A DNA stretch of 64,000 nucleotides from Candidatus Bathyarchaeia archaeon. GTDB lineage: Archaea; Thermoproteota; Bathyarchaeia; Bathyarchaeales; Bathycorpusculaceae. The translations under genes and the position numbers were made by a program. The first letter of the stretch is position 1. Each line of letters starts with the position of its first letter. The DNA is taken from the NCBI GenBank assembly GCA_049521795.1, contig JBEKOM010000008.1, positions 1 to 64,000 of the forward strand, given 5' to 3'. Below the pieces are notes generated by a model that was not told the DNA's origin, ran no database searches, and was given only the letters and a program-made list of their open reading frames with translations. Positions 46,801-64,000 of the stretch are shown one piece after another.

Positions 46801-49339
46801 CAGGAAAACTTGAATAGTTCCACACGTTGTCGACGAAATCGTTGAGAGTCAAGGTATTTCCAGAGGCAGAGGTAGTGACTGCCGCTACGTTTTGTACCCA
46901 AAAGACGAGCGGTCCATATATGGTGTTGATTTGAAGTTTGACGTTCAGTTGAAAGCTCGCGTCATGATTAGAGGTGGTTCCCTTCACCAACGTCGAAAGG
47001 GACGCAACCGTGACGGTTCCCACAAAACTGGTGGTGTTGTATTGGTAGGGCCCGCTTGGCTCCATTCCGTAGTCTGCTATTCCCATCGGGGCTGGCTCGA
47101 TTTGATCAAAGCAATAAACATCGATTCCACCATTTGCAACATTCACAGTTGCGGTGTTAGACGTGGCCATCAATGGCTGGCTGTCGGTGACTCTTACGTA
47201 GACCGTGTAAGAGCCTGTGTATTGTGGGTAAAAAACCCAAGTAGAGAGAGTACCGCCTGAAGCAGCTGAAACTGCCTGACTATTAAGATACCACTGATAT
47301 TTGTAGGGCGGAAGGCCACCTGAAACGGTTGACGGAAACGGCTGACCTGAACCAAACCCGCTAACAGGCATGGTGACAGAACTTGGCGAGATAGATACAG
47401 AAAGCAGTCCGATCACCGTTACAGTCGCAGTGTTAGACGCTGCGTGCAGAATTCCCTGGTTGTCAGTGACTCCCGCCCAGACCGTGTAAGAGCCTGCGGA
47501 TTGTGGAGTGAAAGTCCAACTGCTTGAAGTCGCGCCCGTAACCGAAGACCCATTCAAATACCACTGATAGGAGTATGGAGACGACCCGCCGCCGCCGCCG
47601 TTGAAGACGCTTGAAGTAAACAGCACAGATGACCCAAGATTCATAGTGATCGAGGCGGGCAAAATGGAAATGTAAAAATTGTAAGTGCTAAATCGCACGC
47701 CAACTCCAGTTGCAAATTGATAGACGTTGCTGTACTCAGTTGCTCCGCTGGAGTTGAATAATTGGAACACACCTGGGTTTCTGACGAACGATATTGAATT
47801 TATAGTGCTAACCGAGAACAGAGAATTGCCCGCTGAATCGATTTCTTGCATCCACATCCAAGCAGATGACTTGGTGGAAGTCATATCGCTGTACCATACT
47901 TGCTGCATATTACCATAATATGGATTAGTATGCAACTGTTCTGTCATTAATCCGCTGAATGCAGATTGAGGGGGAGGAGTTTGCGGATAGTTTGGAAGAC
48001 CCACGAAGTACGTTGCTCCGGAGGAACTGTAACTCCCCGAAGAGGTTGCGCCTGTATTCGGGTCGTAGACTTGCATGAGGACGTTGCCTCCCGAAAAGCT
48101 TAGGAATAAATTTACACTGTCTCCTTGATTGACAGAAAGACTCACCCAGTAATAGTAGACTGTACTTCCACTAGGATCGAAGACAAAATAGTTGGCGTTG
48201 AACCCGGGAGTATATGGAAAACCAGAGATACTCGAATTAGCATTGGTACCGAACCAGTCCCATGATAGCCCAACCTCGTACATGTATCCCTGGTCGGAAA
48301 GGCCACACAGCAGACACGCCGGACCTGTTACACTTGAGGCGCCAAACTGTAGCGCAAAACTGTCATCATAATCCTGCTGGACTGCAGTGACGCTGTAGGA
48401 CATGCTGCCGGAGTTTTGTGTGAAAGTTTCTCCGAGTAGTTCGCAATATGGACCGGCCAAATAGCTGGTATATTCGGCCCAAATCTGCTGATCAGACAGT
48501 GCTATATTGTAAATCTTGACTTCGTCGATGATGCCGTTGAACCATGATGTACCTCCAGGATTGTTGCCAATACTGAGTGATTGGCCGTTATAGGCCAGAT
48601 AACCTGATTGTTGGCTACCTACAAGCCTTCCATTGACATAGAGTTTTGCGGTCGCGCCATCGAAAGTTCCAACAACATGATACCATACGCCTGGTTGAAT
48701 AATTCCGGGAGGTGAATAACATATTCCTGGGGCAAATTCAATTCCTGCGTTTGGGTTAATGCGCAAAAAATAACCTTCAGAATAATATGTACTTGCAATA
48801 GTCCCATAAGTACTCACATCATTCGCGTTAAACCACGCTTCTAACGTGATTGCCGCAGTTGGCATAAGACTGGAACCAGTCCCGCAACTAACATAATCAA
48901 CAACTCCATCAAAGCTCAAGGCGCTACCTACTTTCCCGGCAGTCCATGAAGCTCCAATTACAATTCCGTTATTGTTGTTACCGGAGCTATCGTAGGCCGT
49001 TGTACCTGAGCCTTCATCAAGCTTCCAGTAGCCAACCAATCCTGAAGCCTGAGTGTAGCCCGGTAGGCCGGAGTAGGCGGTTACGTTGCTCGTGTCAAGT
49101 GGACCTGCGGCACCAGACGTTTTCGGTAGAGGGGTTGCATAGTGCGGCGCCACAGCGTCCCTCTTGGTCGGGTCGGGGACTAACCCGCTGGCGTTTCCCC
49201 CACGCGCAGCGGTGAACTGTGACTCAGAAACTCCAGAGCTGCCATGAGAAGCGGCTGCTCCAGAGAGAGTACTAATAGGAAACACCGAAATCAGAAAAAA
49301 CACAATTAAAACGAAACTTACAACTGCTTTTCTATTCAT
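43871..49339 (-). CDS. Very large secreted multidomain protein: LamG, thermopsin-like, PKD/Ig repeats, FG-GAP propeller, dockerin
   Basis: Signal peptide MNRKAVVSF; LVGYWKLDEGSG...IDEVKIY (LamG); EPAPMGIADYG (thermopsin); three YQWYLN Ig repeats; DxDGDG repeats; C-terminal GDVNGDG/ADINGDG. Confidence 0.85.
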   Translation of the reverse strand: MNRKAVVSFVLIVFFLISVFPISTLSGAAASHGSSGVSESQFTAARGGNASGLVPDPTKRDAVAPHYATPLPKTSGAAGPLDTSNVTAYSGLPGYTQASGLVGYWKLDEGSGTTAYDSSGNNNNGIVIGASWTAGKVGSALSFDGVVDYVSCGTGSSLMPTAAITLEAWFNANDVSTYGTIASTYYSEGYFLRINPNAGIEFAPGICYSPPGIIQPGVWYHVVGTFDGATAKLYVNGRLVGSQQSGYLAYNGQSLSIGNNPGGTSWFNGIIDEVKIYNIALSDQQIWAEYTSYLAGPYCELLGETFTQNSGSMSYSVTAVQQDYDDSFALQFGASSVTGPACLLCGLSDQGYMYEVGLSWDWFGTNANSSISGFPYTPGFNANYFVFDPSGSTVYYYWVSLSVNQGDSVNLFLSFSGGNVLMQVYDPNTGATSSGSYSSSGATYFVGLPNYPQTPPPQSAFSGLMTEQLHTNPYYGNMQQVWYSDMTSTKSSAWMWMQEIDSAGNSLFSVSTINSISFVRNPGVFQLFNSSGATEYSNVYQFATGVGVRFSTYNFYISILPASITMNLGSSVLFTSSVFNGGGGGSSPYSYQWYLNGSSVTGATSSSWTFTPQSAGSYTVWAGVTDNQGILHAASNTATVTVIGLLSVSISPSSVTMPVSGFGSGQPFPSTVSGGLPPYKYQWYLNSQAVSAASGGTLSTWVFYPQYTGSYTVYVRVTDSQPLMATSNTATVNVANGGIDVYCFDQIEPAPMGIADYGMEPSGPYQYNTTSFVGTVTVASLSTLVKGTTSNHDASFQLNVKLQINTIYGPLVFWVQNVAAVTTSASGNTLTLNDFVDNVWNYSSFPAPNTSSSGISGNNPTPIKQDGSCYVCSAYQNTHDFQPVTLTNPTTITLNVTSRMSYSGPTVSFAFDIDGSGLVTFDTVTFTNVVGFTSLAGFEVNGFNYDPAGTFYNAALILGAPAARGPPPPTTAVPTVQSQVQLQLEYWNGHNYQIVPYAYNFGSGTGELIDNVMCGFSYNQNGETFETMTNGAGQLGPLYYQSQMGVINITSTLTSGTLYVTSASNPNVATAWQIPFVNGQVTVTLYPGTYLLQLYNQNGVLIDYTTKPVSAGQTLSLQSPFNPLSVSVSPSSVVMNVGQSVLFTLSVSGGASPYSYQWFLNGNPQYWGYSSWTFTPSSSGSYTVYATVLDSVGATAKSNTAAVTVNGPAALWSLQWNSTFGGGGHSQFAQPCGDLDGDGVNEIVVGGYESSGIARILKYDKTSGTYYQVYSWTEGGGTYNSPSGATMLDLYGNGSLELVMSWAYCGANDGVWAYKWDGTTLTKLDHFYCSFTYDVYSCDFDGDGVKEVVVANAPWGGYAAHVIGLGWNKATSKFYVKAQWMLPGYSSMECSMVWSGDIKGDGKTRIVACISDSSTGTTAGTWALTWNATSNTWNAELVYAGLIGGGIPYGVAVGDVDGDGIAEIGIGNNVAGYAGAGAVLVKWDGVAYNKVWEGSWPSEYSVIEGVAIGDGENIGKNQFYVGGGNVHVISWIGTGYAEQSTITGAFGLISGVNIADFNNDGQNELKLCDIGGYGPGNEWIFKYAFSPVTYTLTISATAGGTTTPVPGVYSYAAGSVVGVSARPNVNYGFDHWVLDGVNVGPANPTSVTMNTNHALQAVFGSGFAYTDKLQYAIGDTVIVGFQNTGSTTITLSNTAPWVILDASGRVVYNPIAEYVLVSVLPGEKREWGWNQKDYSGQQVSSGTYTLQITTWAGSFTAKFNVTLTITGDVNGDGRVNILDDILVSNAFLSTPSSPNWNHNADINGDGVVNILDDIILSNHWTG

Positions 49340-50045
49340 TTTCCAAACCCTTCCCGCGCGCGCTCCCCCGTCTTCCCAAAGACAACTCGCGCACGCCAAT
49401 GTTGATTAGGCCCATTAGTACTATTTAAGCCCTGTGAAACAATGTTTCAGTCCTTACGAGCGCGTGCTGAAAATGAAGCATCTGATACAGGTTCAGTTCT
49501 GACAAGCTTTCTTTCCATTCTCCATCCTCGAAGATACGCGCGCATCAGACTCTTGGCTAGACGGTCAGCAAGATTCTTCGTTAAAACAAACAGCTCTCCC
49601 GGATGCTTCCCATACAAAGTCTCCACATGCACAACCCATGATCGCGTAGTATGCCTCACATACACACTCTGTAAGAGCCCCAACAAAGCTGTCCAATTCA
49701 CCATCTCAACACGCCTAAAATCAACGGGCAAACAACCCTCAGCCGGCGCGCGCTACTTGATTGTATCTCGTCTCAAAGGAGGCTTCTCTTTCCAAAGGTC
49801 TTCGGACAGAATCTTCCCGCAATGTGGCAATTGACTATCTTTCTGCTCATCCAATTCATCTCCTGCCAAACTTTGCGGCACCCAGCGGTCGCACAGCGAA
49901 AAAGAAAAAAAGGGAAAGAAGCCGTCAAGAAGCGAATTGGAGACATCGCCTCGGGGAGTGAGGCTAGGCAAACCCACAAGTGTGCGTTGACTCGGCGGAC
50001 ATGTTAAAACAACTGCTAGGCCTTCGAACCGTGGCTTGCAGAGCG

Positions 50046-51965: not shown

Positions 51966-52070
51966 GCCGGGGTCTCCTAGCTAGGTATGGAGCAAGCCTG
52001 GAGACGATCAAATTCGCCTAACAGCTTGTGGCCTCTCGGGGCCACGTGGGTTCAAATCCCACCCCCGGCG
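51966..52070 (+). tRNA. tRNA-Ser(GGA) with 19-nt intron at 37/38 (52004-52022)
   Basis: GCCGGGG/CCCCGGC acceptor, CAAGC/GCTTG anticodon stem with CT-GGA-G, long variable arm TGGCC/GGCCA, GTGGG-TTCAAAT-CCCAC, discriminator G, followed by T6. Confidence 0.93.
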
Positions 52071-52130
52071 CTTTTTTACCAGTAAATCTTATATAGATTC
52101 CGCATTTAACTTTAAAGAGGGCTGGTCGAT

Positions 52131-52655
52131 TTGGGAAAGACAGAGAGGATCAAGGATAGATCCATCTACGTTTATCTTCCATCCGTTGACCAAAAGAAAC
52201 GATGGGATGAACAGGCCAGCAAGCATGGTGTAAGCACGTCAAAGTTTGTGATACAGCAGGTAGAGAATTCGCTAAGGCAGACAGAAGATGACAATTACAA
52301 ATCCATTGGTGAACTTTGGAAAGAGAATAAACAACTAAAAGAGCAGTTCGATAAAGAGGCGAGAGAAAAACACGTACTTGAGATTGCGATTGAAAGGTTG
52401 GAAGAAGAACTAAGAAAGTACCGTGCGCAGCCGTTTCTTGATGACGAGTTTGTCGGCACACGACCGTATCAAAAAGAGCTCGTGGAAATTCTCAGGGAAG
52501 GACGGATCGTAAAGAGTGAGGAGGTTCTGTCTGGATTAAGGATTAACCCTACTGAACAGGAGACAGTTAAGGCTGTTTCAAAACAGCTAGAAAATCTAGA
52601 AAGTTATGGCGTAATTAAGTCTTCACCGAAGGGTTGGAGGTGGATTGAGAGATGA
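52131..52655 (+). CDS. Integrase-associated DNA-binding protein (RHH-like N-terminus, coiled coil, wHTH-like C-terminus)
   Basis: RSIYVYLP...W...A...GVSTSKFV; heptad segment; LENLESYGVIKSSPKGWRW; ATGA overlap with the integrase. Confidence 0.7.
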   Translation: MGKTERIKDRSIYVYLPSVDQKKRWDEQASKHGVSTSKFVIQQVENSLRQTEDDNYKSIGELWKENKQLKEQFDKEAREKHVLEIAIERLEEELRKYRAQPFLDDEFVGTRPYQKELVEILREGRIVKSEEVLSGLRINPTEQETVKAVSKQLENLESYGVIKSSPKGWRWIER

Positions 52656-53611
52656 GTCTTGATAATAATGTTGAATCAGTCAGTTCTATCAATGAGGCGA
52701 GACTTGCTGAAGGATTTCTGAAGGACTGCGAACTTAGAAGACTTTCTCCTGAGACAATTGAAGGGTACAAATCGAGTCTCCGAATAACTTCACAAATTCT
52801 CAGAAAACAAGGGCTAAGCTTAAGCAAATTGGACAAGGAATCTCTGAAAAGAGTTTTGGAGTTTCTAGTTGATCAAGGCTACGTCTGTAACACGCTACTC
52901 AATTATTTCGCCACTCTGTCTGGTTTCTGTGACTATTTAGTCTGGGAAGGAATAGCAGACACAAATCCTGTCGTTCCTTTTAGAAAAAGATACGTTAGGC
53001 AATTTAAAAACCAGCATGACCCGGAAAGGAAATTAATTTCAGTCGACGAGATGGCGATGCTGATTAATTCAATATTAGATCCTAGAGACAAAGCAATTGT
53101 CACTCTTCTGGCCAAAACTGGAATTCGAAGGGGAGAACTCATCGGAATAGACATAAAAGACATCGATTGGGTTAATCAAAGTATCCAACTCAAACCTCGT
53201 CCAAAAAGAAGCAACTGCACGGTCTTTTTCGACGACGAAACTGCCCGAGTTTTGAGAAGGTGGTTAAGTGCAAGGCGGGACTTTAATGTTCAACAGGGGT
53301 GCGAAGCCGTCTTCGTAAATGAAGGCGGGACGAGGTTGCAACGCCATGGAGTGACGGATGCAGTAACAAAGCATGCTGAACGCGTCGGATTACACAACCC
53401 TATGAGCAAAAGAATCGAAGACCATTTCACACCTCACTGCTGCAGACACTGGTTTACGACGCATCTCAGAAGAAATGGCATGAGAAGAGAGCTAATCCAA
53501 GAGCTGAGAGGAGATGCTAGAAACGCAGCAGTCGACATTTACGATCATATAGATAAGAAAGAGCTGAGGCGAGCCTACCTGGCAGCAATACCAGTGTTGG
53601 GCATTAACTGA
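52652..53611 (+). CDS. Tyrosine recombinase/integrase
   Basis: KTGIRRGEL (R), K, HCCRH (HxxR), LRGD, IYDH (Y); N-terminal SAM-like domain. Confidence 0.95.
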   Translation: MSLDNNVESVSSINEARLAEGFLKDCELRRLSPETIEGYKSSLRITSQILRKQGLSLSKLDKESLKRVLEFLVDQGYVCNTLLNYFATLSGFCDYLVWEGIADTNPVVPFRKRYVRQFKNQHDPERKLISVDEMAMLINSILDPRDKAIVTLLAKTGIRRGELIGIDIKDIDWVNQSIQLKPRPKRSNCTVFFDDETARVLRRWLSARRDFNVQQGCEAVFVNEGGTRLQRHGVTDAVTKHAERVGLHNPMSKRIEDHFTPHCCRHWFTTHLRRNGMRRELIQELRGDARNAAVDIYDHIDKKELRRAYLAAIPVLGIN

Positions 53612-53754
53612 ACTCTCACCTCTTTCGGACGCTCCCTGTTAGGTTTTAGAAAAACGTAGCGCGCGTCAAACTCCGAGCAAAACGCTACTCATTGTCTTTT
53701 CTTGTGGAAAGGAAAAGAACCAAAGATGTCTATTGACTGCCTTTAGTGTGGGGG

Positions 53755-53783
53755 ATGGGGCCTCCACCCAACTTTACCGGTAA
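53755..53783 (+). repeat. 29-bp direct repeat, copy 1
   Basis: ATGGGGCCTCCACCCAACTTTACCGGTAA; 26/29 identical to 57575-57603. Confidence 0.85.
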
Positions 53784-53976
53784 GAATATGCTTGGGTTAT
53801 GCTTGATTGGAGTTTAGCGCGCGCGCTCGTAGTTTCGTGTATTCTGATAATGGCACTTTCGTAGTATTGGATAAAAGCATATATAGAAAAGCAGCGGGCG
53901 CAAAACCGTTTGACGAAAAGCTTAAAAGATGATACATAAAATACAATGAAATATTCGTTATGGAGGGGGAACAAAG

Positions 53977-54861
53977 TTGAAAAACAGGAAATTGAAAATG
54001 AGTGTGTTGCTGATTGCAACTTTGATAGTGGCCGTGGGAATATATGGTATCTGGGCTAACGTTGGTCCGAAAAGCACTGGGTTAGCTGGAGATAACTCAG
54101 GATTCTCTTTGGTACGTCCAGCTTTTGCGCAGAGTATGGCTGCAGCAACCACATTTCTGGATCAAGAGGCTGGAATATCAATATACCTGAATACCGGAAG
54201 TTCTATGGACGTGAACGCTGCGGCAGCCAACCTCGTAAACATAGAAAACAAAACCTCTGACTGGGCCATAGGTTCTGTTCCTCTAAGCAGTCCTTTTACA
54301 AGTTCTGACTACCCACACTGCTTTGTCCATAAGAGCGGGTGGATCGTTGTCTACTATCTTAAAGCAACCTCACAAAATATGGCTTACATAAGCAAGATGA
54401 TAGTCTGGAAATCTGTCGCGAACGTAAATTCTCCGTTGAATGACACCAAGCTGGAGCAGGGACTGAGAATCGCTTGTACGCCTCTTGGGATATCTACAAC
54501 AAATGCGCAATATTATGACTTCCAGTACCCAAGCGCCACCAACTTACTAATAGCAGCCAAGACCACAATAAATGGATCACCAGCCACGTTCAACATAGAA
54601 ATCCCAGGAACCATGACAGTCTACGAACAAGCTTGGTGCCACAAGACTCACTCTTGGACGTCATGGGGAAACCCAGTGTCACCATCAGCTTTCAAAATCG
54701 ATCAAACACAAGTTGACAGTTGGATAGGAAGCGACGAGGTAACTATTGGTATGCTTGCGTTTCTACCGACCAATCCGCTGGCACTAGACATGTTTCATGT
54801 GGTTTACGTTGATGGAGACACTGGTTATTGCGGTATCTGTCTAACTATACTTTACTCCTAG
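53977..54861 (+). CDS. Secreted/membrane-anchored hypothetical protein
   Basis: Basic plus hydrophobic N-terminus; 294-aa ORF; no family recognised. Confidence 0.7.
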   Translation: MKNRKLKMSVLLIATLIVAVGIYGIWANVGPKSTGLAGDNSGFSLVRPAFAQSMAAATTFLDQEAGISIYLNTGSSMDVNAAAANLVNIENKTSDWAIGSVPLSSPFTSSDYPHCFVHKSGWIVVYYLKATSQNMAYISKMIVWKSVANVNSPLNDTKLEQGLRIACTPLGISTTNAQYYDFQYPSATNLLIAAKTTINGSPATFNIEIPGTMTVYEQAWCHKTHSWTSWGNPVSPSAFKIDQTQVDSWIGSDEVTIGMLAFLPTNPLALDMFHVVYVDGDTGYCGICLTILYS

Positions 54862-55887
54862 TTGTCAAAGCCTCGGAAGTGCCTGTGCTTGAAAAAGATT
54901 CCAGTGACATACCTCTGCTTAATCAGCCTACTGATTGCTATCGCCACATGCTTTACGTTGACGCATGCGAAAACTTTGCAGACTTCGAGTCTGCCTCGTG
55001 CAAGTATGCATGAAAGCGCAATTCAAGGAAATAGCATAGAGCTTAATAACACAGACTACAATTCAACTACTGCTTTTGAACATCCCGACCTTGGCAACGT
55101 GACCGAAAACGTTACGCAAAGAGTGGTCGTAGAGTACGGAGATTATGCGGCTCAGCACACAGTGTATCCGCCTGTCGGCCTGCCGTCAATACTCTCGACA
55201 AGGATAATCGTAGAATATGCTGATACATCACTTCTGATAGGTCTTCAAAGGCCTGAGGTTTTGAACCAAACAATCGCGCCGAGAATAATCATAGAATATG
55301 CCGATATGTCGTTTCAACTAAGCCTTCAGAGGCCTGAGACCCTCACCCAGACAATGGCGCCCAGAATAATTATTGAATACGCAGATTACGCGACAACCAT
55401 TGCCGTGTCGCCTTATATGGGTCCGCCGCCATATTCGAACGGCACGAGTCGTCCCAGCATTGTCGTAACGCGGGAGCCATCAGGGCCCCAAGTTCCTGAA
55501 AATCAGAGAGTTCTTGTTTCAGCGAATGTTACTGATGCAGAATCAGGAGTAAGAAACGCAACACTGGAATACACTCTGGACAACAGCACAGACTGGTCTC
55601 GTGCACATGCCACGCCTATGAGCCTCAGCACGACCCTGCAGCCTCAGAATTCTCTGGCTCTCTCTTTCAACGCAACAATTCAGGGGCAATCGTCTGGCAC
55701 GCGCGTACGTTTCAGGATAGTTGCCTACGACTTCGCTGGAAACAATGCAACGATAGATGGTGTGATAGATACCACTACTTATCTAGTAGTGCCAGAGTTT
55801 CCATCGGTCGTACTGCTGCCACTGTTTGTAATGGCAAGTCTGTGTGCAGCCATAGTCTACAGAAGAAGGCACTCAGTAAGTGGCTAA
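54862..55887 (+). CDS. Secreted protein with four RIIxEYAD repeats, Ig-like domain and PEF-CTERM sorting signal (start uncertain)
   Basis: C-terminus VVPEFP, then a TM helix, then RRRH; repeats RVVVEYGD, RIIVEYAD, RIIIEYAD twice. Confidence 0.78.
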   Translation: MSKPRKCLCLKKIPVTYLCLISLLIAIATCFTLTHAKTLQTSSLPRASMHESAIQGNSIELNNTDYNSTTAFEHPDLGNVTENVTQRVVVEYGDYAAQHTVYPPVGLPSILSTRIIVEYADTSLLIGLQRPEVLNQTIAPRIIIEYADMSFQLSLQRPETLTQTMAPRIIIEYADYATTIAVSPYMGPPPYSNGTSRPSIVVTREPSGPQVPENQRVLVSANVTDAESGVRNATLEYTLDNSTDWSRAHATPMSLSTTLQPQNSLALSFNATIQGQSSGTRVRFRIVAYDFAGNNATIDGVIDTTTYLVVPEFPSVVLLPLFVMASLCAAIVYRRRHSVSG

Positions 55888-56151
55888 CGAAGCGCGCGCG
55901 TTTTTGTGCATAAAAGACAGCGCGCGCGATCGAGTCTGCTGACATTATTGTAATCGCTGAGTCCCCTTTCTTTTCCTTTCGTCTCTTTCTTCCTTGTTAT
56001 ATTTGATACAGTTCTAGGAAGTATGAGTTTCAGCTCATGCGATAGAAGATGGTTCCAAAAAACTTTAATACCTAAACACAGAGGACAATCTTCAGGTCAT
56101 TGAGAAGTAAGAATTAGGGGAAAAAATCCACCAACCGGGAAGCGACTAGGA

Positions 56152-57498
56152 TTGAAAACAAAAATGGTTGTCGTTATCGCTATTGTGTTATTGGCTCAGT
56201 GCTCAATAGCTCCATTTCTCCATGAAGCAATAGCAGATTATTCGGGAAACCATTGTCTAAGTTACAACGGGGTCAATGATTATGTAGTTTTCGGGAATTC
56301 GCCAGTTTTCCATTCAGCCGCGCTCACTCTTGAAGCTTGGATTAAACCCAAATACGACATCATATATGGAAGCAATTCACAATATGGGCACCAAAGTGGA
56401 GTGGTCGCAACCACTCGGCCGCAAGGGATGTCGACTGACACTGGATGGCAAGTGTGGTTCAGTTATTCGAATGGCTACCTTGGCTTTGCATTTTGGTACG
56501 CGCCAGCTGTTGGAGTGTCTTACCAGTCAATCAAGCAGGTCTGGTACAATGATTCGTGGTACCACATTGCGGTTACGTATGACCCAACGCTACCCAATGG
56601 AAACATAAAGTTCTTCGTGAACGGAACCCTTGACTCCGAACTTAACGAAAATCATACTATTTCTTATTCCACCGCGGGGCCTTTCGAGGCTGGTCTGTTG
56701 CCAGGTGGACCAGATGGCGGTCACCCTTTTGGTGGCCTTATTGACGAAGTGCGAGTGTGGAACATCTCTAGGCCGCAGGCAGATATTCAAAGCGACTGGA
56801 ATAGAACACTTATCAGCACTGAAATGGCAAACCCCAACCTGATCGGATACTGGCGCTTCGACGAAGGAAGCGGACCGACTTCCCACGACTACTCGATTTA
56901 TCAAAACGATGCCGCTCTAGCCCCAGCCCCATCTAATCCGCAATGGTTTAGTCCAGGCGCCCCGATAGTGCTCGCGTCTCATGATGTAGCCGTCACGAAT
57001 GTTGTGTCTTCTAAGACTGGTTGCCTGCCAATGCCAACAGTTGGTCAAGGCTTCAGCGTCACCATAAACGTCACAGTGGCAAACCAAGGCAGCTACACTG
57101 AAACCTTTAACACAACAGCATATGCCAACGCAAACATCACGGGATCAGAAAACGTTACCTTACCAGCTGGCGGCTCCACGACAGTCACGTTCACATGGAA
57201 CACTACTGGCTTTGCCTTTGGCAACTACACCATAAGCGCTTACGCTTGGCCTGTCCCAGGCGAAACCAACACGGCGAACAACAACCTCACAGGCGGAACT
57301 GTTGAAGTAACTATTCCAGGCGACCTCAATGGCGACGGAACGGTCAACATTTTGGATGCTATATTACTTGCTAACGCCTTTGGCGCCACGCCCGGCAGCT
57401 CAACCTGGAACCCCAACGCAGACATAAACGGCGACGGTGTCGTAAACATCTTAGACGCCATAATCCTCGCAGGCCACTTCCAACAACACTACCCATAG
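56152..57498 (+). CDS. Secreted LamG + CARDB + dockerin protein
   Basis: TLEAWIK, WYHIAVTYD, IDEVRVWN, YWRFDEGSG; HDVAVTNV...V.V.NQG; GDLNGDG/ADINGDG. Confidence 0.87.
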   Translation: MKTKMVVVIAIVLLAQCSIAPFLHEAIADYSGNHCLSYNGVNDYVVFGNSPVFHSAALTLEAWIKPKYDIIYGSNSQYGHQSGVVATTRPQGMSTDTGWQVWFSYSNGYLGFAFWYAPAVGVSYQSIKQVWYNDSWYHIAVTYDPTLPNGNIKFFVNGTLDSELNENHTISYSTAGPFEAGLLPGGPDGGHPFGGLIDEVRVWNISRPQADIQSDWNRTLISTEMANPNLIGYWRFDEGSGPTSHDYSIYQNDAALAPAPSNPQWFSPGAPIVLASHDVAVTNVVSSKTGCLPMPTVGQGFSVTINVTVANQGSYTETFNTTAYANANITGSENVTLPAGGSTTVTFTWNTTGFAFGNYTISAYAWPVPGETNTANNNLTGGTVEVTIPGDLNGDGTVNILDAILLANAFGATPGSSTWNPNADINGDGVVNILDAIILAGHFQQHYP

Positions 57499-57574
57499 CC
57501 CCTTTTTCCTAGTTCAGCGCGCGCTGCTGCAAGCATCCCCTAGAAGGCGCTGCTCGCTCTGCCACACTCGAAAA

Positions 57575-57603
57575 ATGGGGCCTCCACCCGATTTTACTGG
57601 TAA
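57575..57603 (+). repeat. 29-bp direct repeat, copy 2
   Basis: ATGGGGCCTCCACCCGATTTTACTGGTAA. Confidence 0.85.
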
Positions 57604-57698
57604 AACGCGCGCGCAAGCCTGCACGTTAGTGTGTAAAGTCTTTTATTAGCTACCGAACATAATAGAGAAAATGTTTGGCGTAGTGAATGGCTCTCCAG

Positions 57699-57784
57699 AA
57701 GGGTCATCACCACTCGCTGCGATACGCAAACTTACAGTGTGCAATTGCACACTTAAGATTTTCGCAAGAGTGGCTTTAACCCTT
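57699..57784. other. 86-nt imperfect inverted repeat / long RNA hairpin
   Basis: AAGGGT/ACCCTT, CCACTC/GAGTGG, TGCGA/TCGCA and CTTA/TAAG nested around the perfect palindrome AGTGTGCAATTGCACACT (57736-57753). Confidence 0.8.
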
Positions 57785-57828
57785 AGGGAACCTTCCTCCT
57801 CACGCCAAATAGGAGGGGTCTATAAAAA

Positions 57829-58014
57829 ATGGGAATAAATCTGGAAAACCCGAAGACATTCTTGCCTTTATTACTATTCATAGGCTTTGTCTTTTCATTG
57901 ATAGGGTTGGGCTTGTGGACTTGGACATCAAACGCAGGGCTAGTGATTGTTGGTTATCTGACCATGATGCTGGCAGTATTTCTATGGGTTCTCATAAATC
58001 GCAGAAGGTTCTAA
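57829..58014 (+). CDS. 61-aa two-TM membrane protein with basic C-tail
   Basis: AGGAGG upstream; two hydrophobic helices; ends in NRRRF. Confidence 0.65.
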   Translation: MGINLENPKTFLPLLLFIGFVFSLIGLGLWTWTSNAGLVIVGYLTMMLAVFLWVLINRRRF

Positions 58015-58061
58015 ACTAAATGCTTGACCTAATACTGTCACCCTTCCCTTTTTTGAAAATA

Positions 58062-58134
58062 ATCGAACAAAGATATGATCTTATTGTCACATCTCCACCC
58101 TATCATCATTGATCCCTTTGCAGGAACAGGGTGC
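58062..58134 (+). pseudogene. Relic of an amino (N4-C/N6-A) DNA methyltransferase
   Basis: YDLIVTSPPY (motif IV) directly followed, in another frame, by IIDPFAGTG (motif I). Confidence 0.7.
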
Positions 58135-58379
58135 ATGTCTGTTAAGTTTACAGTATCCCTTTGGGTTATCCGCAAGAAGGTCTAGCCACTAATGTTGGGC
58201 CCCAGCGCGCGCGCTATTGAAATATTCAAACATGATTCCAATGTAAACATAACCTGATCTTAGACACGTTAAGGATGGGTGAGTCTTAAATGGCATTTGG
58301 CAACGTCAAAGTCATAGGATTTTGAGCACTCTACAACGAGCACAACAGGTGTGCGTGCTAAGCGAGAAAGTATTTTAAG

Positions 58380-58856
58380 ATGACTAACAGGTGTAAGGTT
58401 GTGCAAGAGAAATTGCAGAAAAACGGCAAACAGGAAGCCTCAAATCAGATCCTATCAGGTGAAGGTTTCCCTGACGGAAATGCGAAGGGAGAAGTAATTA
58501 AAGTTAGAAGATTGGAACTAGATTTAGGCAAGAAAGGACTATTCTTATCCTGCGAACCAAGGAAAATCATAGTCGCACAGGAGCTTCTCGCTATAGACGG
58601 TGCAAGTTTTGCCATAAGGGCTTTTCTCATGTCTGAGAATGTCGAACATTTGTTACCAAAAGCGATTCTACTAGAAAAGTGTAATGTCGAGCTTTTGAAC
58701 GGTTTAGTGGCCGCTGAAAGTGGTAAACCTAATATTGTTTTGCCCATTTACGTATGGGATGTCCGTTCTGAGCTTTTGAATAGAATCGAGAACGGAGAAA
58801 CATTGGAGATAAAGGTAAAACAGCATAAGGCAATCATCCATAGACTGTCGAAATAA
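58380..58856 (+). CDS. Aconitase X swivel-domain (DUF126)-like protein, divergent
   Basis: GEG...GNAKGEV, LPKAILLEK, GLVAAE, LPI, IENGETLEI resemble AcnX small subunits; the usual GKGST-like loop is not evident. Confidence 0.45.
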   Translation: MTNRCKVVQEKLQKNGKQEASNQILSGEGFPDGNAKGEVIKVRRLELDLGKKGLFLSCEPRKIIVAQELLAIDGASFAIRAFLMSENVEHLLPKAILLEKCNVELLNGLVAAESGKPNIVLPIYVWDVRSELLNRIENGETLEIKVKQHKAIIHRLSK

Positions 58857-58879
58857 ACACATTTAGAAAAAGACCACTA

Positions 58880-59764
58880 TTAGAAACCCTGGAAACACTC
58901 TGTAGTAATCCTAATGAAACCGTCAACAACTGAATCAAGGTCAAATCTAAATTCTGAATAACGTTTTATCAATCTTCTTATGGCCAGCGAGACCAAAGGA
59001 ACATTCGCCATAACTTCATTTATCACTTCGAACCAACGGTTCTCGTACTCGTCAGCAAGTTTCCTGTCAAACTCCTGCAGGGCCAGAATTACAGAAACCT
59101 TGCCCAGGCTTCTTGCTGTATGCAAAACTAGACAAGGAAATGTCAAGTCCTCTGAATCAATTGACTCTCTAAGTGCCCTTATATTCAATCGTTTTTTCTC
59201 TTCGAGGAGTGCTTCAAGAGACAATTGCCGATAGCTAATGTCACTCCTAAACATCAACTTGTAAGCTTTTGTGTCCCCGATCAGATTCAGGAGTATGGAC
59301 AGGTATTCTCGTGATATTCCTTCATCTTTTGTAAGCGAATAAATTCTATTCAAATTGCTCATGAACTCTGAGCCCCCGTGCGGAGGGTACTCTTTTAGAA
59401 CATAGTGAGCTATTTCATGGGCCAGAGCGAGTCTCTTTTCGCTGTCTGAGCGTTTAGCAAGGTCTTCAAGGTCGATACATATTTCTGGGGGTGGATATGG
59501 CATGAAGAGAATTGCAGGAAGCGAGGAGACAAAGAATCTTGTTTGTTTAAGGCTAGTTCTTTTTTTTAACTCTCTAATAATGTAATTGTGAAAGACAATT
59601 CTGTTGTTACACATGGTAACATTGACAGTTTCATCTTTTCCAGAAAGCTGACTGGAAATCGTAGCAATCTCCAAGCAAAGGCTTTTTTTCATTTGCAGGG
59701 ATATGTTGCCAATCGTTTTCGCGTTAATTGACAATAATGTCTCCCTTGAGTTCTGTATGGTCAT
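58880..59764 (-). CDS. HExxH zincin-like metallopeptidase domain protein
   Basis: ICID...SDSEKRLALAHEIAHY; ATGA overlap with the upstream gene. Confidence 0.65.
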   Translation of the reverse strand: MTIQNSRETLLSINAKTIGNISLQMKKSLCLEIATISSQLSGKDETVNVTMCNNRIVFHNYIIRELKKRTSLKQTRFFVSSLPAILFMPYPPPEICIDLEDLAKRSDSEKRLALAHEIAHYVLKEYPPHGGSEFMSNLNRIYSLTKDEGISREYLSILLNLIGDTKAYKLMFRSDISYRQLSLEALLEEKKRLNIRALRESIDSEDLTFPCLVLHTARSLGKVSVILALQEFDRKLADEYENRWFEVINEVMANVPLVSLAIRRLIKRYSEFRFDLDSVVDGFIRITTECFQGF

Positions 59765-60582
59765 TCTCTAATCAAATCATCTATAAAAGAGGCATCCTCT
59801 ACTTTTTCGCCACTCTGCCACAATTCTCTTTCAAACTCATCTCTTAGCTGCTGGGCCCTTTCTTTGTTTTCGACCAATTTTCCCTCAAAAATCTTCTTCG
59901 TTTCTTCATCTCTGTTTGAATAAACAATGTACTTGTCGCCTATAATAGTAGCTTCAAGAAATTTTGACTTCTCGTCGATCTTACCACAACGAATCTTGAA
60001 GTTTGAATTTGTCTCTTTTAGAAACTTCTCCAATATCTTTTTTCCCTCTTTAACGTAGCCTTTGTAGTTTTCATCCCGAATGTATTGTTTGAGAACAAGT
60101 GCTGCATTGTACTTATCAAAGAAATATTTCACTTTGAGACCCATTTCAGCCTTTCCGTCCCTAGATGCAGATGCCTTCAAAAGCAAATCGAAGTATTTTC
60201 TTCTAAACTTGGACTTCTCTGAACTGGGAAAAGGAAACGCGGAAGGGTCATATTCAGAGGCTAGTATAACCCCTGGTGTCGTGGAAACGATACAAATATC
60301 GGTTGAATTTTCGACAACCCATCTGGATTTTTCGTAAAATTGTTTTGCAGTATGGAGTTCCTTGTAGTTCCTTATATTAACCGCGGAAATGACAATTCCT
60401 CCAGATGTAAGTCCTGACAACGCGATACCCAAAGCAAATGCGAGTTGATTCAGGTAGACAAGCACACCCAAGCACGCTGCTATAACAATTAGGATTAGGA
60501 TGACTGCTATTCCTCTAAGACCTAATCTATCGTAAATACTACGAAATTCATTGAATTTTCTGTTTGAACTTATTTCGCTCAT
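59761..60582 (-). CDS. Two-TM protein with PLD-like/TrmB-type soluble domain (no HKD)
   Basis: Two N-terminal TMs; ICIVS...VKYF...IR...IIGD...G....N......L...FE..W pattern. Confidence 0.5.
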   Translation of the reverse strand: MSEISSNRKFNEFRSIYDRLGLRGIAVILILIVIAACLGVLVYLNQLAFALGIALSGLTSGGIVISAVNIRNYKELHTAKQFYEKSRWVVENSTDICIVSTTPGVILASEYDPSAFPFPSSEKSKFRRKYFDLLLKASASRDGKAEMGLKVKYFFDKYNAALVLKQYIRDENYKGYVKEGKKILEKFLKETNSNFKIRCGKIDEKSKFLEATIIGDKYIVYSNRDEETKKIFEGKLVENKERAQQLRDEFERELWQSGEKVEDASFIDDLIRE

Positions 60583-60911
60583 ATTTCTTTCTCCAAGATT
60601 ACCTTTAATGTGTATATTACCATATAAATAATAGATGGTGCTGCCGCGAACACGAGGAAGACGCTTAAATAGAATATCGAGGTGCGCGAATCTTCAAGTT
60701 GTGGCGATGCACCAAAGATGGAAATGAAGGAAGCCAAAAATAGGCTGAAAATTGTCCAAGGAGAATTGCGTAGAATTTGCCGACGCACCGCCCGGAATTC
60801 TCTTAATTGCTCTCCGAGAGCTAAAGAAAGAAAAACCAGAACTAATGATGCACTGGTCATGCAAAGCCCAGCTAATCCAATTAAAGTTGCCGAGTCGATC
60901 AAACCGATCAC
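60579..60911 (-). CDS. Three-TM small membrane protein
   Basis: 110 aa, three hydrophobic segments; 4-bp overlaps with both neighbours. Confidence 0.7.
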   Translation of the reverse strand: MIGLIDSATLIGLAGLCMTSASLVLVFLSLALGEQLREFRAVRRQILRNSPWTIFSLFLASFISIFGASPQLEDSRTSIFYLSVFLVFAAAPSIIYMVIYTLKVILEKEI

Positions 60912-62074
60912 ATCTTGTCTAGGTGCTTGATGTCATCCAGAAGAAGAGAGCGGTCTTTTTCGCTTGCGGTTTCTGGGGGGCCTCCTATTTCAGATATGAC
61001 GGTTGGACACCTATTTTCTAATGCTGTGGACACTTCAGTGCGCACTCTGTCTGCGTGTTTATTGTCTGTGATTATGAATACGCTCGGCCCTGTATCGATA
61101 GAATAGTGAACTGGAAAATGAGCTTCTCTTAACTTGCTTACGAGGTGAATAATAGATACTGTCTCAGGCATCCAGACTAATGCTCCGCATTGCAATAATA
61201 GGCTGTGGAAAAATCTTGTATCGGATTCAGCCATCTCTCCTATTTTGAAAACATCTCTATTTTCAACATGGTTGACAAGTTCAAAGACGTGTTGTGCTTT
61301 ATTCGTAGCCCATTTTTCATAGAAGGGAGATGATAAAGCTCTCCTGTGCATTTCTTCAGTGGTAATTCCTAAGGGCAATGGCACCACAACCATTTTTAAA
61401 GGCAGTTCGCCGTCATCGATTCTTACCGAATAAGATTCCTCGGGAGCTATACCCTCATATGAAAACCATAGAGCAACACCTCCAGCAGCGGATCTTGATG
61501 CAGACCCAGCGAATAATCGTGCATAAGTAGAGACAAGCCTGGATTTCCTGCTCATTTCTTCCCCATAGGCGGCCGATATAATCGCCTTAGCGAGAGCAGC
61601 TCCAGCTGCAGCGGAAGTGCCAAGTCCCTTGGCATCAGACCCATTTTGAAACCTATTTCTTGATGCAATTAGCACTTTTGTCTTTATACCAGTATCGTTT
61701 CGAAAACATCGGATTACCTTAGACGCCCTTGTGAGACTTTTGTCAATTTGTTTCCCATTCACGATAAAAAGATCATCTTCTAGACGCCTGTCAAACTTCA
61801 CATAGGTGATTGTTTGCATAACCTTGTGGCAAACTGAAACTGACGGGAAATACGCTAATCGTAGTTCACTATCAGACATTCCTAGATACTTCTCTAATCC
61901 TAAAATAGGATAGGCAGTGGCTGTGGCTTCTCCCTCAATTTTCTCTTCTTTTGGTAGCTTCGGTTTTTCTTCTAATTTCCCTTGCTGTTTGAGATAAGCA
62001 CGTATCTTTTCTGTTTCTTCTTTCAGTTTCTGAACAATTGATGCGTCAATCATTCCAGTTTTCTCATTCTGCAA
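60908..62074 (-). CDS. Diphosphomevalonate-decarboxylase family protein (mevalonate 3,5-bisphosphate decarboxylase-like)
   Basis: AYPILGLEKYLG, GHMP loop KGLGTSAAAGAA, GSASRSAAGG, catalytic Asp retained in SIDTGPS. Confidence 0.8.
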   Translation of the reverse strand: MQNEKTGMIDASIVQKLKEETEKIRAYLKQQGKLEEKPKLPKEEKIEGEATATAYPILGLEKYLGMSDSELRLAYFPSVSVCHKVMQTITYVKFDRRLEDDLFIVNGKQIDKSLTRASKVIRCFRNDTGIKTKVLIASRNRFQNGSDAKGLGTSAAAGAALAKAIISAAYGEEMSRKSRLVSTYARLFAGSASRSAAGGVALWFSYEGIAPEESYSVRIDDGELPLKMVVVPLPLGITTEEMHRRALSSPFYEKWATNKAQHVFELVNHVENRDVFKIGEMAESDTRFFHSLLLQCGALVWMPETVSIIHLVSKLREAHFPVHYSIDTGPSVFIITDNKHADRVRTEVSTALENRCPTVISEIGGPPETASEKDRSLLLDDIKHLDKM

Positions 62075-62903
62075 CCTTCTCTGCCTCTCCTACTAACACT
62101 CTAACTCTATCGAACGCTATGTCTAAACATTCGTCAACTACCTTATCGAAATCATCGTTGGAGATTATTGGGATTCCATTCTCTCGAGCTAAACTAACAA
62201 GATGATTTTGTATGACTCGTATTTCATTAAACACGGGGATGAATCTCTCCGCATCTCGTCGGATGTGTGTAGAAGACTTCCGCAAAAGAAGACGTTCCCT
62301 ATGTACCTTAGGATCTCTTACTTCTAACATCATGGGTATGACGCTTTTATTTTGAAAGGCAGTGCTCCCACATAGTTTTTGTGTCAAGTAAAGGCTCTCA
62401 ATAGCTACGCTTTCTCCATCTCGCAAGCATCTTTCTAGCAGTCGTTCTATTGCATCGGCAATGCACTTTGAATGCTCTTCATATGCTTTTATGATATTGT
62501 GTTCTGTTGGTTTTTTGTACTTCACCCTCCAACATTCATATACACTACTGAAGAAAAGCGGATACTGCTCTTCAGGCACAACACTTCTCAAGCACTCTCT
62601 GATGGCGTCAGCCCCTATTGTGTTTCGCAGTCCCATTCTAAACGCCAACTCTGCTGTGACACTTGTTTTCCCGGATGCATGGCCACCTATTACTAGAAGT
62701 ATTATCGGATCTGTCAATTTGCCTGATTTGACAAGGTCATGGTACCTCAAGAACAGTTCAAATCTACTCGCATATTTTGGCGAAAGCTTTGCGAGATTCC
62801 GGATAATGTCGTTGGAATTTGAACTATGGGTTGAGATTTTGCAAGCTTGCTTGAGATCGAGTCCTGTTGAAAAGATGGCCAACTCTTTGACATCAAGAAA
62901 CAT
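62064..62903 (-). CDS. 2-phosphoglycerate-kinase-family P-loop kinase (mevalonate-3-phosphate 5-kinase-like by context)
   Basis: GGHASGKT, D.IRE.LRS, SS.Y..W, IES, H.ER...R, F.EIR.IQ..L. Confidence 0.78.
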   Translation of the reverse strand: MFLDVKELAIFSTGLDLKQACKISTHSSNSNDIIRNLAKLSPKYASRFELFLRYHDLVKSGKLTDPIILLVIGGHASGKTSVTAELAFRMGLRNTIGADAIRECLRSVVPEEQYPLFFSSVYECWRVKYKKPTEHNIIKAYEEHSKCIADAIERLLERCLRDGESVAIESLYLTQKLCGSTAFQNKSVIPMMLEVRDPKVHRERLLLRKSSTHIRRDAERFIPVFNEIRVIQNHLVSLARENGIPIISNDDFDKVVDECLDIAFDRVRVLVGEAEKVAE

Positions 62904-62924
62904 AGACTTGGCCTCTCAATGAAT

Positions 62925-63917
62925 CTAATTTTGAACGATTGAAGCTGGACCAGCAACCTTGTATTCAACAGCAGGAAAACGTTTTGTTAATTCCTTGAAT
63001 ATTTCTCTTGAATCTTTCTTCAAACACAATACGTTTACTGCACTACCACCGGTGATAATAAAATACGCCTGATGCCCATTTTCTCTTAACTGTCTAACGT
63101 AGTTTAGGGCTTCAAACATCTGATCTTTGATAACTCGCAACCCGCACCATTCGAGCAAGTAATGAAAATTCATTGTGTCTTGTTCCGCAATTTGCATAAT
63201 CCTAATAATATCTCTCTTTTTAGCGGCCTCTTTCAATTCTTCAACCATTTTTGATCTGCTTGCAACCCGCTGTGGAAAGTCTGGGTGTTTCACGATAGCT
63301 TGATGAATTTCGTCAGAGCTGTGTCGATTGATTCCTTTAAAGCCTATTACGAAAATCGAGAGATCTTGAAGCTGTTCATTGCTCAATAGTAAACTTGCGT
63401 GGCAATTATCAGAGATTATTTCGGTCAAAGATAATCCTCCTAAAAGGCTTCGGTAAACGCTTTCAGACCCTTGTCTAGCAATATCAGTCACCTTTGCATC
63501 TAGTTTGAGGTCGAACATGTTAGAAACCGCGAGCGCTAGAGCACAAGCACCGGAATCTGAGCTACCCGAGATAATGCCAAAATTGCGTGAAGTGATTTTT
63601 AATCCCACTCTTAGCCCTGCAAGGTCTTGTAGTGCCAACACCATTTTTTTCATGTCATCTATGCGTTTGTTGTCAAGGTTTTTGCGGATTTCTTTCCCTT
63701 CAGCGACATCAACTATACCAAGCTGGATTTCATTTTTTTGGGGAAGTTGCTCCACAAGGGTCTCGGTTCTTACATATTCACGATCATCAGTAACTGAAAT
63801 GCCTGCGTTGGAATACGCTGGAACTCTTCTGTCCCAATCCTTCAGGCCACCCAAAAGCAAAACTCCAATTGCCGGGTATGCCCTCGCAAGCACTTTTTCT
63901 TTCATTTTCATTCCCAA
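62925..63917 (-). CDS. Mevalonate 3-kinase-like GHMP protein
   Basis: AYPAIGVLLLGG, NFGIISGSSDSGA, SES..RSLLGGL, SDEIHQ, ITGGS (catalytic Asp replaced by Thr); closely parallels my recollection of Thermoplasma mevalonate 3-kinase. Confidence 0.85.
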   Translation of the reverse strand: MGMKMKEKVLARAYPAIGVLLLGGLKDWDRRVPAYSNAGISVTDDREYVRTETLVEQLPQKNEIQLGIVDVAEGKEIRKNLDNKRIDDMKKMVLALQDLAGLRVGLKITSRNFGIISGSSDSGACALALAVSNMFDLKLDAKVTDIARQGSESVYRSLLGGLSLTEIISDNCHASLLLSNEQLQDLSIFVIGFKGINRHSSDEIHQAIVKHPDFPQRVASRSKMVEELKEAAKKRDIIRIMQIAEQDTMNFHYLLEWCGLRVIKDQMFEALNYVRQLRENGHQAYFIITGGSAVNVLCLKKDSREIFKELTKRFPAVEYKVAGPASIVQN

Positions 63918-64000
63918 CTGAAATGACGTTAAGTGGTTGTTCTTAATTGCTAATTTGCATATATAAAAGATTTGTATTAATAGGCTAAAATCGAAGCATG

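Follow-up and report, generated by a model that had tools for sequence, protein, structure and literature searches.

A putative Thermoplasma-type mevalonate operon on an element integrated at a tRNA-Ser gene of a Bathyarchaeia genome

The Thermoplasma-type (variant III) mevalonate pathway is represented by three enzymes, a mevalonate 3-kinase (Ta1305), a mevalonate-3-phosphate 5-kinase (Ta0762) and a bisphosphomevalonate decarboxylase (Ta0893/PtoMBD) (PMC5177888; PMC9254496). The route was earlier viewed as an adaptation of extreme acidophiles, with an acid-adaptation rationale proposed for it (PMC5177888), before turning up in certain DPANN and Asgard genomes; it is described in Micrarchaeota, Altiarchaeota, Aenigmatarchaeota and Heimdallarchaeia (PMC11052028), and transfer of the gene trio from Thermoplasmatales to Micrarchaeota has also been described (PMC8975820). 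For Bathyarchaeia the accessible text of PMC11052028 mentions only PMD, and its supplementary genome tables might already include a Bathyarchaeia genome. Here we analyse a 64,000-nt stretch (the window), the start of contig JBEKOM010000008.1 (C8) from a Candidatus Bathyarchaeia archaeon (GCA_049521795.1; G000 below), in which a first-pass annotation had pointed to a six-gene operon, g1-g6, headed by a Thermoplasma-type trio. We suggest, with moderate confidence, that the operon encodes an element-borne Thermoplasma-type bypass that feeds the host isopentenyl phosphate kinase (IPK) and is co-transcribed with a novel membrane sensor-like module. The first-pass annotation described the route as characterised in Thermoplasmatales; reports from outside that group already existed (PMC11052028).

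The six open reading frames (ORFs) lie on the minus strand and span 58880-63917, at the same positions as first annotated. The first, g1 (62925-63917), encodes a mevalonate 3-kinase (M3K) homologue of 330 aa from a TTG codon; ATG 63905 is the more likely start and would make the protein 326 aa long, the length of its 95% relative P0001. A 21-nt gap separates it from g2 (62064-62903; 279 aa), a P-loop kinase of the 2-PGK family and putative mevalonate-3-phosphate 5-kinase (M3P5K). The third gene, g3 (60908-62074; 388 aa), encodes a homologue of MBD, the mevalonate 3,5-bisphosphate decarboxylase; it overlaps g2 by 11 nt only if it starts at TTG 62074, and the in-frame ATG 62053 leaves a 381-aa protein and a 10-nt gap. 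Overlaps of 4 nt then join g3 to g4 (GTGA), g4 to g5 (ATGA) and g5 to g6 (ATGA), where g4 (60579-60911) encodes a 110-aa protein with three transmembrane (TM) segments, g5 (59761-60582) a 273-aa protein with a two-helix membrane hairpin and a cytoplasmic phospholipase D (PLD)-fold domain without HKD, and g6 (58880-59764) an HExxH protein of 294 aa (284 or 270 aa according to other gene callers). A TATA-box-like sequence, TTTTATATAT, lies at 63959-63968 on the minus strand, 54-63 nt upstream of ATG 63905 and within the element described below (a motif match only), and a T5 run at 58867-58871 follows the g6 stop codon. Because all six ORFs have homologues elsewhere we take them as real genes, and a reading of them as chance frames was rejected.

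The operon is compositionally foreign to its host. Between 58 and 64 kb the GC content is 0.40-0.42, compared with 0.45-0.53 for the remaining window, and it returns to 0.50-0.52 directly past 64 kb; third-position GC (GC3) is 0.365-0.427 in g1-g6 against 0.53-0.68 in flanking host genes, and 0.42-0.51 in the other island ORFs longer than 100 aa. The features on which the first-pass annotation was built, namely six minus-strand ORFs, short overlaps, an AT-richer island and the motifs ITGGS and DTGPS, are all present in the sequence.

The trio resembles the characterised Thermoplasma-type pathway in its three families, in their pathway order, and in the catalytic Asp, lost in the kinase (ITGGS) and retained in the decarboxylase (DTGPS). 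It differs in that g1 is only 29-37% identical to Thermoplasmatota M3Ks (tblastn), in that the window genes form one operon on a mobile element, and in that the host keeps MVK and AcnX/UbiD, whereas Thermoplasmatales are described as having no MVK (PMC8975820).

Domain matches give g1 an MDD-like GHMP fold with an M3K C-terminal domain (PF22700 at 3e-17; PF21433, M3K_C, at 9e-25). Its best NCBIfam model is NF040848 (mevalonate-3-kinase; 207.9 bits against a cut-off of 440), which we take to be built on Thermoplasmatales sequences, and its best match in the PDB is Ta1305 (4rkp, 2.6e-36). At the catalytic Asp position of the decarboxylases g1 has Thr; across 12 of 12 aligned M3K-like sequences the GG of the motif is invariant and this position is T or A, never Asp. 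Replacement of the Asp is described as leaving a kinase without decarboxylation (PMC9254496), and the Thr of g1 therefore fits a non-decarboxylating kinase.

The third gene gives a matching picture: its best NCBIfam model is NF040847 (bisphosphomevalonate decarboxylase; 207.3 bits against a cut-off of 560) and its best PDB match is the Picrophilus MBD (7t71, 1.7e-33), with DTGPS aligned to DTGTS; Asp309 of PtoMBD is catalytic, as mutagenesis is described to show (PMC9254496). Residues 14-50 of g3 align with PtoMBD from residue 21 on, whereas PMD and DMD chains align only from g3 residue 48-53, so that g3 has the MBD-type N-terminal extension that is absent from DMD/PMD. The kinase g2 matches NF008996 (M3P5K) from position 3 to position 190 of its 193, scoring 108.7 bits where the cut-off is 250, and 2-PGK models over the kinase core only (positions 85-296 of 306). 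By homology, g1-g3 probably constitute a complete Thermoplasma-type lower mevalonate module.

Phylogeny supports the identities of g1 and g3. In a tree of 74 MDD-family rows (a 'quick' IQ-TREE run with long-branch warnings, duplicate rows removed) g1 fell inside the M3K clade (51 rows, SH-aLRT 100), apart from PMD/DMD, and g3 inside the MBD clade (12 rows, SH-aLRT 100). Within the M3K clade g1 belongs to a sub-clade of 10 rows (support 88) alongside metagenome proteins, two Micrarchaeia metagenome-assembled genomes (MAGs), a MAG titled Methanosarcinales and one from Altiarchaeota, and this sub-clade is sister to the 41-row Thermoplasmatota-type clade. The assignment of the trio to the Thermoplasma type thus holds on domain matches, on Ta1305 and Picrophilus MBD as best PDB relatives and on placement in the M3K and MBD clades; the trio appears to belong to the Micrarchaeia/Altiarchaeota branch and not to the Thermoplasmatota branch.

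We then compared the locus with 42 loci holding g1 relatives in species-representative genomes, using tblastn of seven window proteins over ±9 kb. The trio is clustered in four of the 42: L017 and L018 (Micrarchaeia MAGs), L019 (a MAG titled Methanosarcinales) and L029 (a Micrarchaeota MAG). Within ±9 kb the M3K gene is solitary in the other 38, most of which are titled Thermoplasmatota. Gene order and strand in L017-L019 are as in the window, and in L029 the kinase gene is divergently upstream. These clustered trios are the nearest relatives, with identities of 46-49% for g1, 33-34% for g2 and 40-45% for g3, and g1 and g3 share a sub-clade with them; a first scan of the genome contigs with g3 only gave no match. 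The L017 operon runs on into NUDIX (IDI-like) and AA_kinase (IPK-like) genes, that of L029 into AA_kinase and that of L019 into AglB, and because the L017 and L029 operons continue into NUDIX/AA_kinase this trio branch is tied to isoprenoid synthesis. The Micrarchaeia-type operons differ from the window in their GC content (0.43-0.61 against 0.41 here) and in having no relatives of g4, g5, g6 or o158 (an ORF convergent with g6) within ±9 kb.

In L017 (6495-13324) we also observed a split transketolase and a transaldolase leading directly into M3K, kinase, MBD, NUDIX and AA_kinase, a long stretch of genes on one strand in which pentose-phosphate genes are joined to isoprenoid genes. The statement in the first-pass annotation that the Thermoplasmatales genes are not clustered is correct for M3K, which stands alone, but not for the kinase and MBD genes, which are adjacent and on the same strand in three of five Thermoplasmatales genomes checked (G761, G762 and G764), with M3K elsewhere; the loci concerned are L074-L076, L064, L065 and L067.

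As judged from its gene content, the host has the standard archaeal route (MVK/AcnX/UbiD): we found HMGR, MVK (278 bits, above the cut-off) with IPK adjoining it, two AcnX, UbiD and UbiX-type flavoproteins. Proteins that cluster at >=90% with this MVK and IPK bear the NCBI name Candidatus Bathyarchaeia, in agreement with the class of the host. With a canonical MVK present, the Thermoplasma-type route is not the sole route of this host; whether the AcnX/UbiD route was there too had been left for checking at first pass, and the two AcnX and the UbiD settle it. UbiD-type decarboxylases use prenylated flavin mononucleotide, which the bypass would not need.

The trio is not native to the lineage, as seen from its low GC and GC3, from sparse matches to g1 in relatives and from the restriction of the 2-PGK family to G000. 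A g1 query matched in 8 of 41 related genomes, G000 included, with 33% identity for the best of the others, and in one of 10 same-genus genomes at 30% identity; these proteins of the related genomes fall in separate PMD-like clades. The 2-PGK family is found in one of 151 genomes of the phylum, G000, and g2 is its only member there apart from a 24-bit fragment with stop codons. We conclude that the trio was probably acquired horizontally and would form a parallel route to isopentenyl phosphate.

The operon lies in an integrated element. A tRNA-Ser(GGA) gene with a 19-nt intron (51966-52071, plus strand; ARAGORN with introns allowed) is the integration target, and it is 92-93% identical to that of the same-genus genomes G001 and G002. 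Its last 18 nt form attL (52054-52071, AAATCCCACCCCCGGCGC), and an 18-nt repeat with one mismatch forms attR (AAATCCCACTCCCGGCGC, C8 64163-64180), 163 nt past the window end. In the closed genome G001 the 3' end of this tRNA gene has the repeat in its attR form, with the 8 nt found after attR in G000 coming directly behind it (26/26 nt), and asnA lies about 1.1 kb beyond the tRNA gene, against 13.8 kb in G000. From the att repeats and the empty site in G001 we define the element as C8 52072-64162, about 12.1 kb, of which 52072-64000 is inside the window. Next to attL are a 174-aa coiled-coil ORF (52131-52655, plus strand), the integrase partner, with weak coiled-coil Pfam matches only, and a tyrosine integrase of 319 aa (52652-53611, plus strand; PF00589 at 2.3e-25 and SAM-like N-terminal domains); the operon and its promoter region sit at the attR end. 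The marks of a tRNA-integrated element are thus all present: the integrase beside attL, the 18-nt sequence from the tRNA 3' end repeated directly at the far side, and a relative in which the site is empty. In these the element is like the tRNA-targeting archaeal elements with tyrosine recombinases; it differs in that its cargo is a putative central-metabolism bypass. The suggestion made at first pass of an island-borne operon in a non-Thermoplasmatales host is borne out by the integrase, the att repeat, the empty site and the host gene content.

The att repeat was found by DNA comparison with ten same-genus genomes and pairwise BLAST; an exact k-mer search for it found none, owing to the one mismatch. 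Default ARAGORN and Rfam reported no tRNA-Ser in the window. At the gathering threshold Rfam gave zero families over 1-64000, missing also the tRNA-Pro that ARAGORN placed at 17307-17381, and because of that second miss its blank for tRNA-Ser carries little weight. No virus or conjugation hallmark genes were recognised in the element. Three further cargo ORFs occupy 53977-57498 on the plus strand, encoding proteins of 294 aa, 341 aa (Ig-like) and 448 aa (Laminin_G_3, CARDB and dockerin); their GC3 of 0.45-0.51 is intermediate between host and operon. The dockerin end of the last (window 56960-57500, the 3' part of ORF 56152-57498) has dozens of 65-85% identical DNA copies spread over G000 and same-genus relatives, in a large secreted-protein family.

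Other insertions were seen at or near such sites. In G002 this tRNA-Ser gene is followed by an insert of 2.2 kb (L083, G002:C15 4434-6656), at whose boundary, 2.2 kb from the tRNA gene, the end of the window element is found again together with att in a 44-nt copy; the insert may be what is left of the element, or a smaller relative. A sister integrative element lies at tRNA-Leu(GAG) on contig C1 of G000 (about 606.7-610.99 kb; L085), with a coiled-coil ORF 42% and an integrase 53% identical to those of the window element, and a low-GC (0.38) cargo of one transglutaminase-like (DUF553) gene and unknowns that gave no functional hint. The amidase gene beside attR (C8 64239-65744) has no match at E<=1e-60 in 10 same-genus genomes, and the peat runs described below also contain a 91%-identical copy with different flanks, from an organism whose depth is 20- to 400-fold higher, which suggests a second, separate acquisition. 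Elsewhere in the window a 1842-aa minus-strand ORF (43871-49399) lies upstream of ABC transporter genes.

The genes g4 and g5 form a split version of one membrane protein. Four relatives, P0069, P0070, P0071 and P0086 (367-448 aa), have four or five predicted TM segments before a g5-like part; g4 is collinear with the N-termini of P0069 (E 4e-6), P0071 (E 3e-5) and P0070 (E 0.098), and the C-terminal parts of the fused relatives match the g5 profile. The alignment of g4 to these N-termini is our reason for reading g4 and g5 as one divided protein, and the charge distribution would place the ends of g4 and g5 that must meet in the cytoplasm. The first-pass annotation was right about the three TM segments of g4, but treated as a separate gene what is the detached N-terminal part of the g5 family. 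This family is extremely rare: clustered proteins numbering 5.8 billion include only three relatives of g5, at 50-52% identity; its profile, run exhaustively with HMMER against 1.84 billion proteins, found 24 representatives, and P0078, a repeat protein matched in the TM region only, and the fragment P0079 were set aside; and the family profile matched one of 401 genomes of the phylum, G000.

The cytoplasmic domain of g5 has a PLD fold over residues about 75-265 of a model with pLDDT 68. VIA-align placed TrmBL2 first (Z 11.6), followed by Nuc (10.8), F13 (10.7), SauUSI (10.6) and TrmB (10.3); the top 24 rows (Z 11.6-6.1) are PLD-fold proteins by entry title, with Foldseek concordant, and among the rows the polyphosphate kinase and restriction endonuclease entries are ones that we take to have this fold. 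An Atlas model of g5 was nearest to the C-terminal domains of TrmB- and XRE-type regulators (TM-score by query 0.57-0.71). Unlike PLD superfamily enzymes, g5 has the fold without the HxK(x)4D catalytic motif: a pattern check for HxKxxxxD found it in none of 27 family sequences (g5 and 26 relatives). Residues about 75-265 superpose on the HKD-less PLD-like effector domains of TrmB/TrmBL2 and of XRE-type (DUF5753 C-terminal) regulators, and the domain looks like a non-catalytic PLD fold of the TrmB ligand-binding type. The label "TM-PLD-like" given to g5 at first pass is therefore apt for the fold, but not for an enzyme with the HKD motif.

The likeness to regulators has limits. Where these have a winged-helix DNA-binding domain g5 has a two-helix membrane hairpin, and at the sequence level it matches neither the TrmB families of Pfam nor a PDB chain; the g5 and g6 family profiles against PDB sequences likewise gave nothing meaningful. 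Some g5-family relatives have a helix-turn-helix (HTH) N-terminal to the domain, P0084 being fused to HTH_3, and in 18 relatives Pfam recognised N-terminal parts of four kinds only, namely HTH, FUR-like (weakly), CYTH and deaminase. The metagenome protein P0088 (618 aa), a distant family member, joins a g5-like domain to CYTH (E 0.007, below cut-off) and a cytidine/dCMP deaminase. The SLATT 2-TM effector model (NF033634) matched g5 over the TM hairpin only, scoring 13 bits where 41 are required (E 0.077), and g5 was not assigned to it.

The last gene, g6, has three relatives among 5.8 billion clustered proteins (70-80% identity), and its HEIAH is invariant in 4/4 homologues and kept in a distant 33% relative. 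Pfam gave two sub-threshold matches, M78 (E 0.038; 14.2 bits, the cut-off being 22) and SprT-like (E 0.095), and PADLOC gave CapP (E 0.013) and RmrA (E 0.024). The g6 model (pLDDT 45) is too poor to use, with a best Foldseek E of 0.94 and no fold match at E <= 0.001, and an Atlas feature search turned up no named cluster, although one of those returned had DUF5781 on 14% of it. A metagenome scan found only three distant partial relatives (33-34%), with no trio nearby, and the g6 profile matched one of 401 genomes of the class, G000. Compared with ImmA/IrrE (Peptidase_M78) and CapP-type proteases, g6 shares an HExxH helix in a similar sequence setting, through weak matches, but has a conserved 170-residue helical C-terminal part for which no counterpart was found; the earlier designation as a peptidase is based on the HExxH motif, which is present, and goes no further than it. 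Convergent with g6 is o158 (58380-58856, plus strand; 158 aa), which has low GC as in the operon (GC3 0.409) and no match in Pfam, NCBIfam, PADLOC or PHROG.

Whether the trio and g4-g6 belong together is the question on which the alternatives turn. In the 42 other M3K loci, the four clustered trios included, there is no relative of g4-g6 or o158, and viral contigs hold no relatives of g1, g5 or g6. Cluster look-ups gave 8039 nt as the size of the longest Logan contig for relatives of each of g1, g2, o158, g6 and g5 (taken together, P0063, P0093, P0101, P0102 and P0105; identities of 94.8% for g1, 93.5% for g2, 91.8% for o158, 77.3% for g6 and 55.3% for g5), and from equal contig size and source we infer that the five share one variant contig of the locus. 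Divergence on this variant is lowest at the ends and highest in the membrane part of g5 (26-40% identity). By equal longest-contig size, g5-g6 pairs probably also occur on contigs of 2592 nt (P0062/P0066) and 6895 nt (P0064/P0067), on neither of which the g1 search or the g1 cluster recorded a g1 relative; by the same measure a 3364-nt contig would carry P0001/P0094. The first-pass annotation held that its view would fail if the three downstream genes were never linked to the trio elsewhere; they are absent from the 42 loci and would recur on the 8039-nt variant.

We suggest the following scheme. The element, inserted in the 3' end of tRNA-Ser(GGA) in a peat Bathyarchaeia genome, would supply three enzymes: g1 would convert mevalonate to mevalonate 3-phosphate, g2 would convert this to mevalonate 3,5-bisphosphate, and g3, as an ATP-independent MBD, would yield isopentenyl phosphate. 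The host IPK would take up this product, giving a second route parallel to the native MVK/AcnX/UbiD route. Translationally coupled to g3 would be g4 and g5, as one five-helix membrane protein with a cytoplasmic PLD-fold domain, and the HExxH protein g6; these may serve as a membrane-bound sensing or regulatory partner and would not be pathway enzymes.

Several points weigh against this scheme. The trio scores well under the NCBIfam equivalog cut-offs (208/440, 109/250 and 207/560), g2 is not placed relative to true 2-PGKs, with none of the 150 other genomes of the phylum supplying a family outgroup, and no activity is known for this trio branch. In principle the cell does not need a second route, which would moreover consume an additional ATP for no evident gain, and no RNA run is among those holding the locus. 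In the sensor-like module the conserved His of KKIxH[G/N], present in most family members, is Glu in the window g5. The four other clustered trios do not have g4-g6, and conversely the tight coupling of g3 to g4-g6 together with their apparent recurrence on the 8039-nt variant means that the two modules may be one system.

Two alternatives to an IPK-feeding bypass survive best, and we consider both unlikely. In the first, the locus is one integrated system, in which the trio product, a mevalonate-derived phospho-metabolite or another 3-hydroxy-acid product, is a ligand of the TrmB-like domain of g4/g5 and, with g6, triggers a membrane or cell-fate response. The 4-nt overlaps running from g3 through g4 and g5 to g6, the single foreign composition of the six genes and o158, and the hypervariable centre of the 8039-nt variant, which may be likened to that of conflict genes, are as this would predict; so are the resemblance of the g5 domain to ligand-binding domains of regulators and its distant relatives with HTH or with CYTH and cytidine deaminase, and there are known systems in which regulators of this type are paired with HExxH/M78 proteases. 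Against it, the only PADLOC match is that of g6 to CapP (E 0.013), no effector-type catalytic motif was found, the nearest trios sit in plain isoprenoid operons without g4-g6, and the viral contigs are empty of relatives, with co-residence on 8039 nt deduced from contig size and source. The defence or signalling role proposed at first pass is likewise possible but unlikely; PADLOC 2.0 found no families for g1-g5 and o158, the locus matches no known anti-phage system, and g6 gave only the weak CapP and RmrA matches.

In the second, given a similarly low probability, the cargo consists of two unrelated modules lying side by side, one a working mevalonate bypass, the other a membrane/HExxH module (including o158) with its own function, packed into a single transcript by loss of the DNA between genes. 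This would account for the lack of g4-g6 in all 42 other M3K loci, for the presumed g5-g6 pairs on 2592 and 6895 nt with no g1 relative recorded, and for the very unequal divergence of both modules, but not for the start-stop overlap of g3 and g4, the uniform composition over six genes or the renewed co-occurrence on the putative 8039-nt contig; the shorter contigs may also end before the trio. The furthest-reaching version of a single system seems to us quite improbable: all seven low-GC genes would form one mobile system in which a phosphorylated mevalonate derivative or isopentenyl phosphate is the ligand of g4/g5, which with g6 controls a membrane or cell-fate response, and the hypervariability of g4-g5 would reflect an arms race.

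The soundness of the assembly was assessed in public sequence data. Seven runs contain part of the stretch; three contain at least half of the sampled words, one of these possibly being the source. Contigs of four runs, all labelled peat metagenome, were compared with the locus. Runs X2 and X3 contain 0.84 and 0.82 of the sampled words, and their contigs cover the g6/g5, g5/g4/g3 and g2/g1 junctions with no differences at a depth of about 3-7. A single X2 contig extends from g1 through the promoter region and attR to nucleotide 212 of the amidase gene, and X2 depth at the low-GC block (4-6) equals that of the flanks. The X2 and X3 contigs are short (0.6-1.6 kb), no listed record covers the entire island, and no contig in the four peat runs crosses an empty site; for g5 and the flanking MDH proteins the same 90,598-nt JGI contig is listed as the longest. 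It is very improbable that the low-GC block came from another organism, such as a DPANN or Thermoplasmatota cell, and was misjoined to a Bathyarchaeia contig: this is a 69-contig assembly with 4.4% estimated contamination and sharp composition jumps at ~57.5 and 64 kb, but the element around the block has its integrase and att repeat, a relative shows the empty site, X2 and X3 contigs match at the junctions, and one JGI contig is listed for both g5 and the flanking MDH, evidence on which the Thermoplasmata chimera considered at first pass is also rejected.

Here the Thermoplasma-type route takes the form of a compact operon, carried by a mobile element whose integration is demonstrable, and it does so in a phylum for which it is unreported in the accessible text of the papers searched, supplementary tables aside. 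A pathway-level transfer of core lipid-precursor metabolism is thereby directly visible, into a host that already has the standard route. The locus offers a natural test of the use of an extra route, for example in acidic peat or where the native iron-sulfur dehydratase is limited: the dehydratase of the native route has a [4Fe-4S] cluster (PMC10040528), which the bypass would not need, and the peat-labelled runs, taken with the acid-adaptation rationale (PMC5177888), suggest that low pH may favour the additional route. In g4, g5 and g6 the element carries an undescribed and extremely rare family, with a regulator-like sensor domain and uneven divergence. Were these genes coupled to the enzymes, they would define a new kind of system; and were the whole locus one system, it would be the first of a signalling or defence type to be built on isoprenoid-precursor chemistry.

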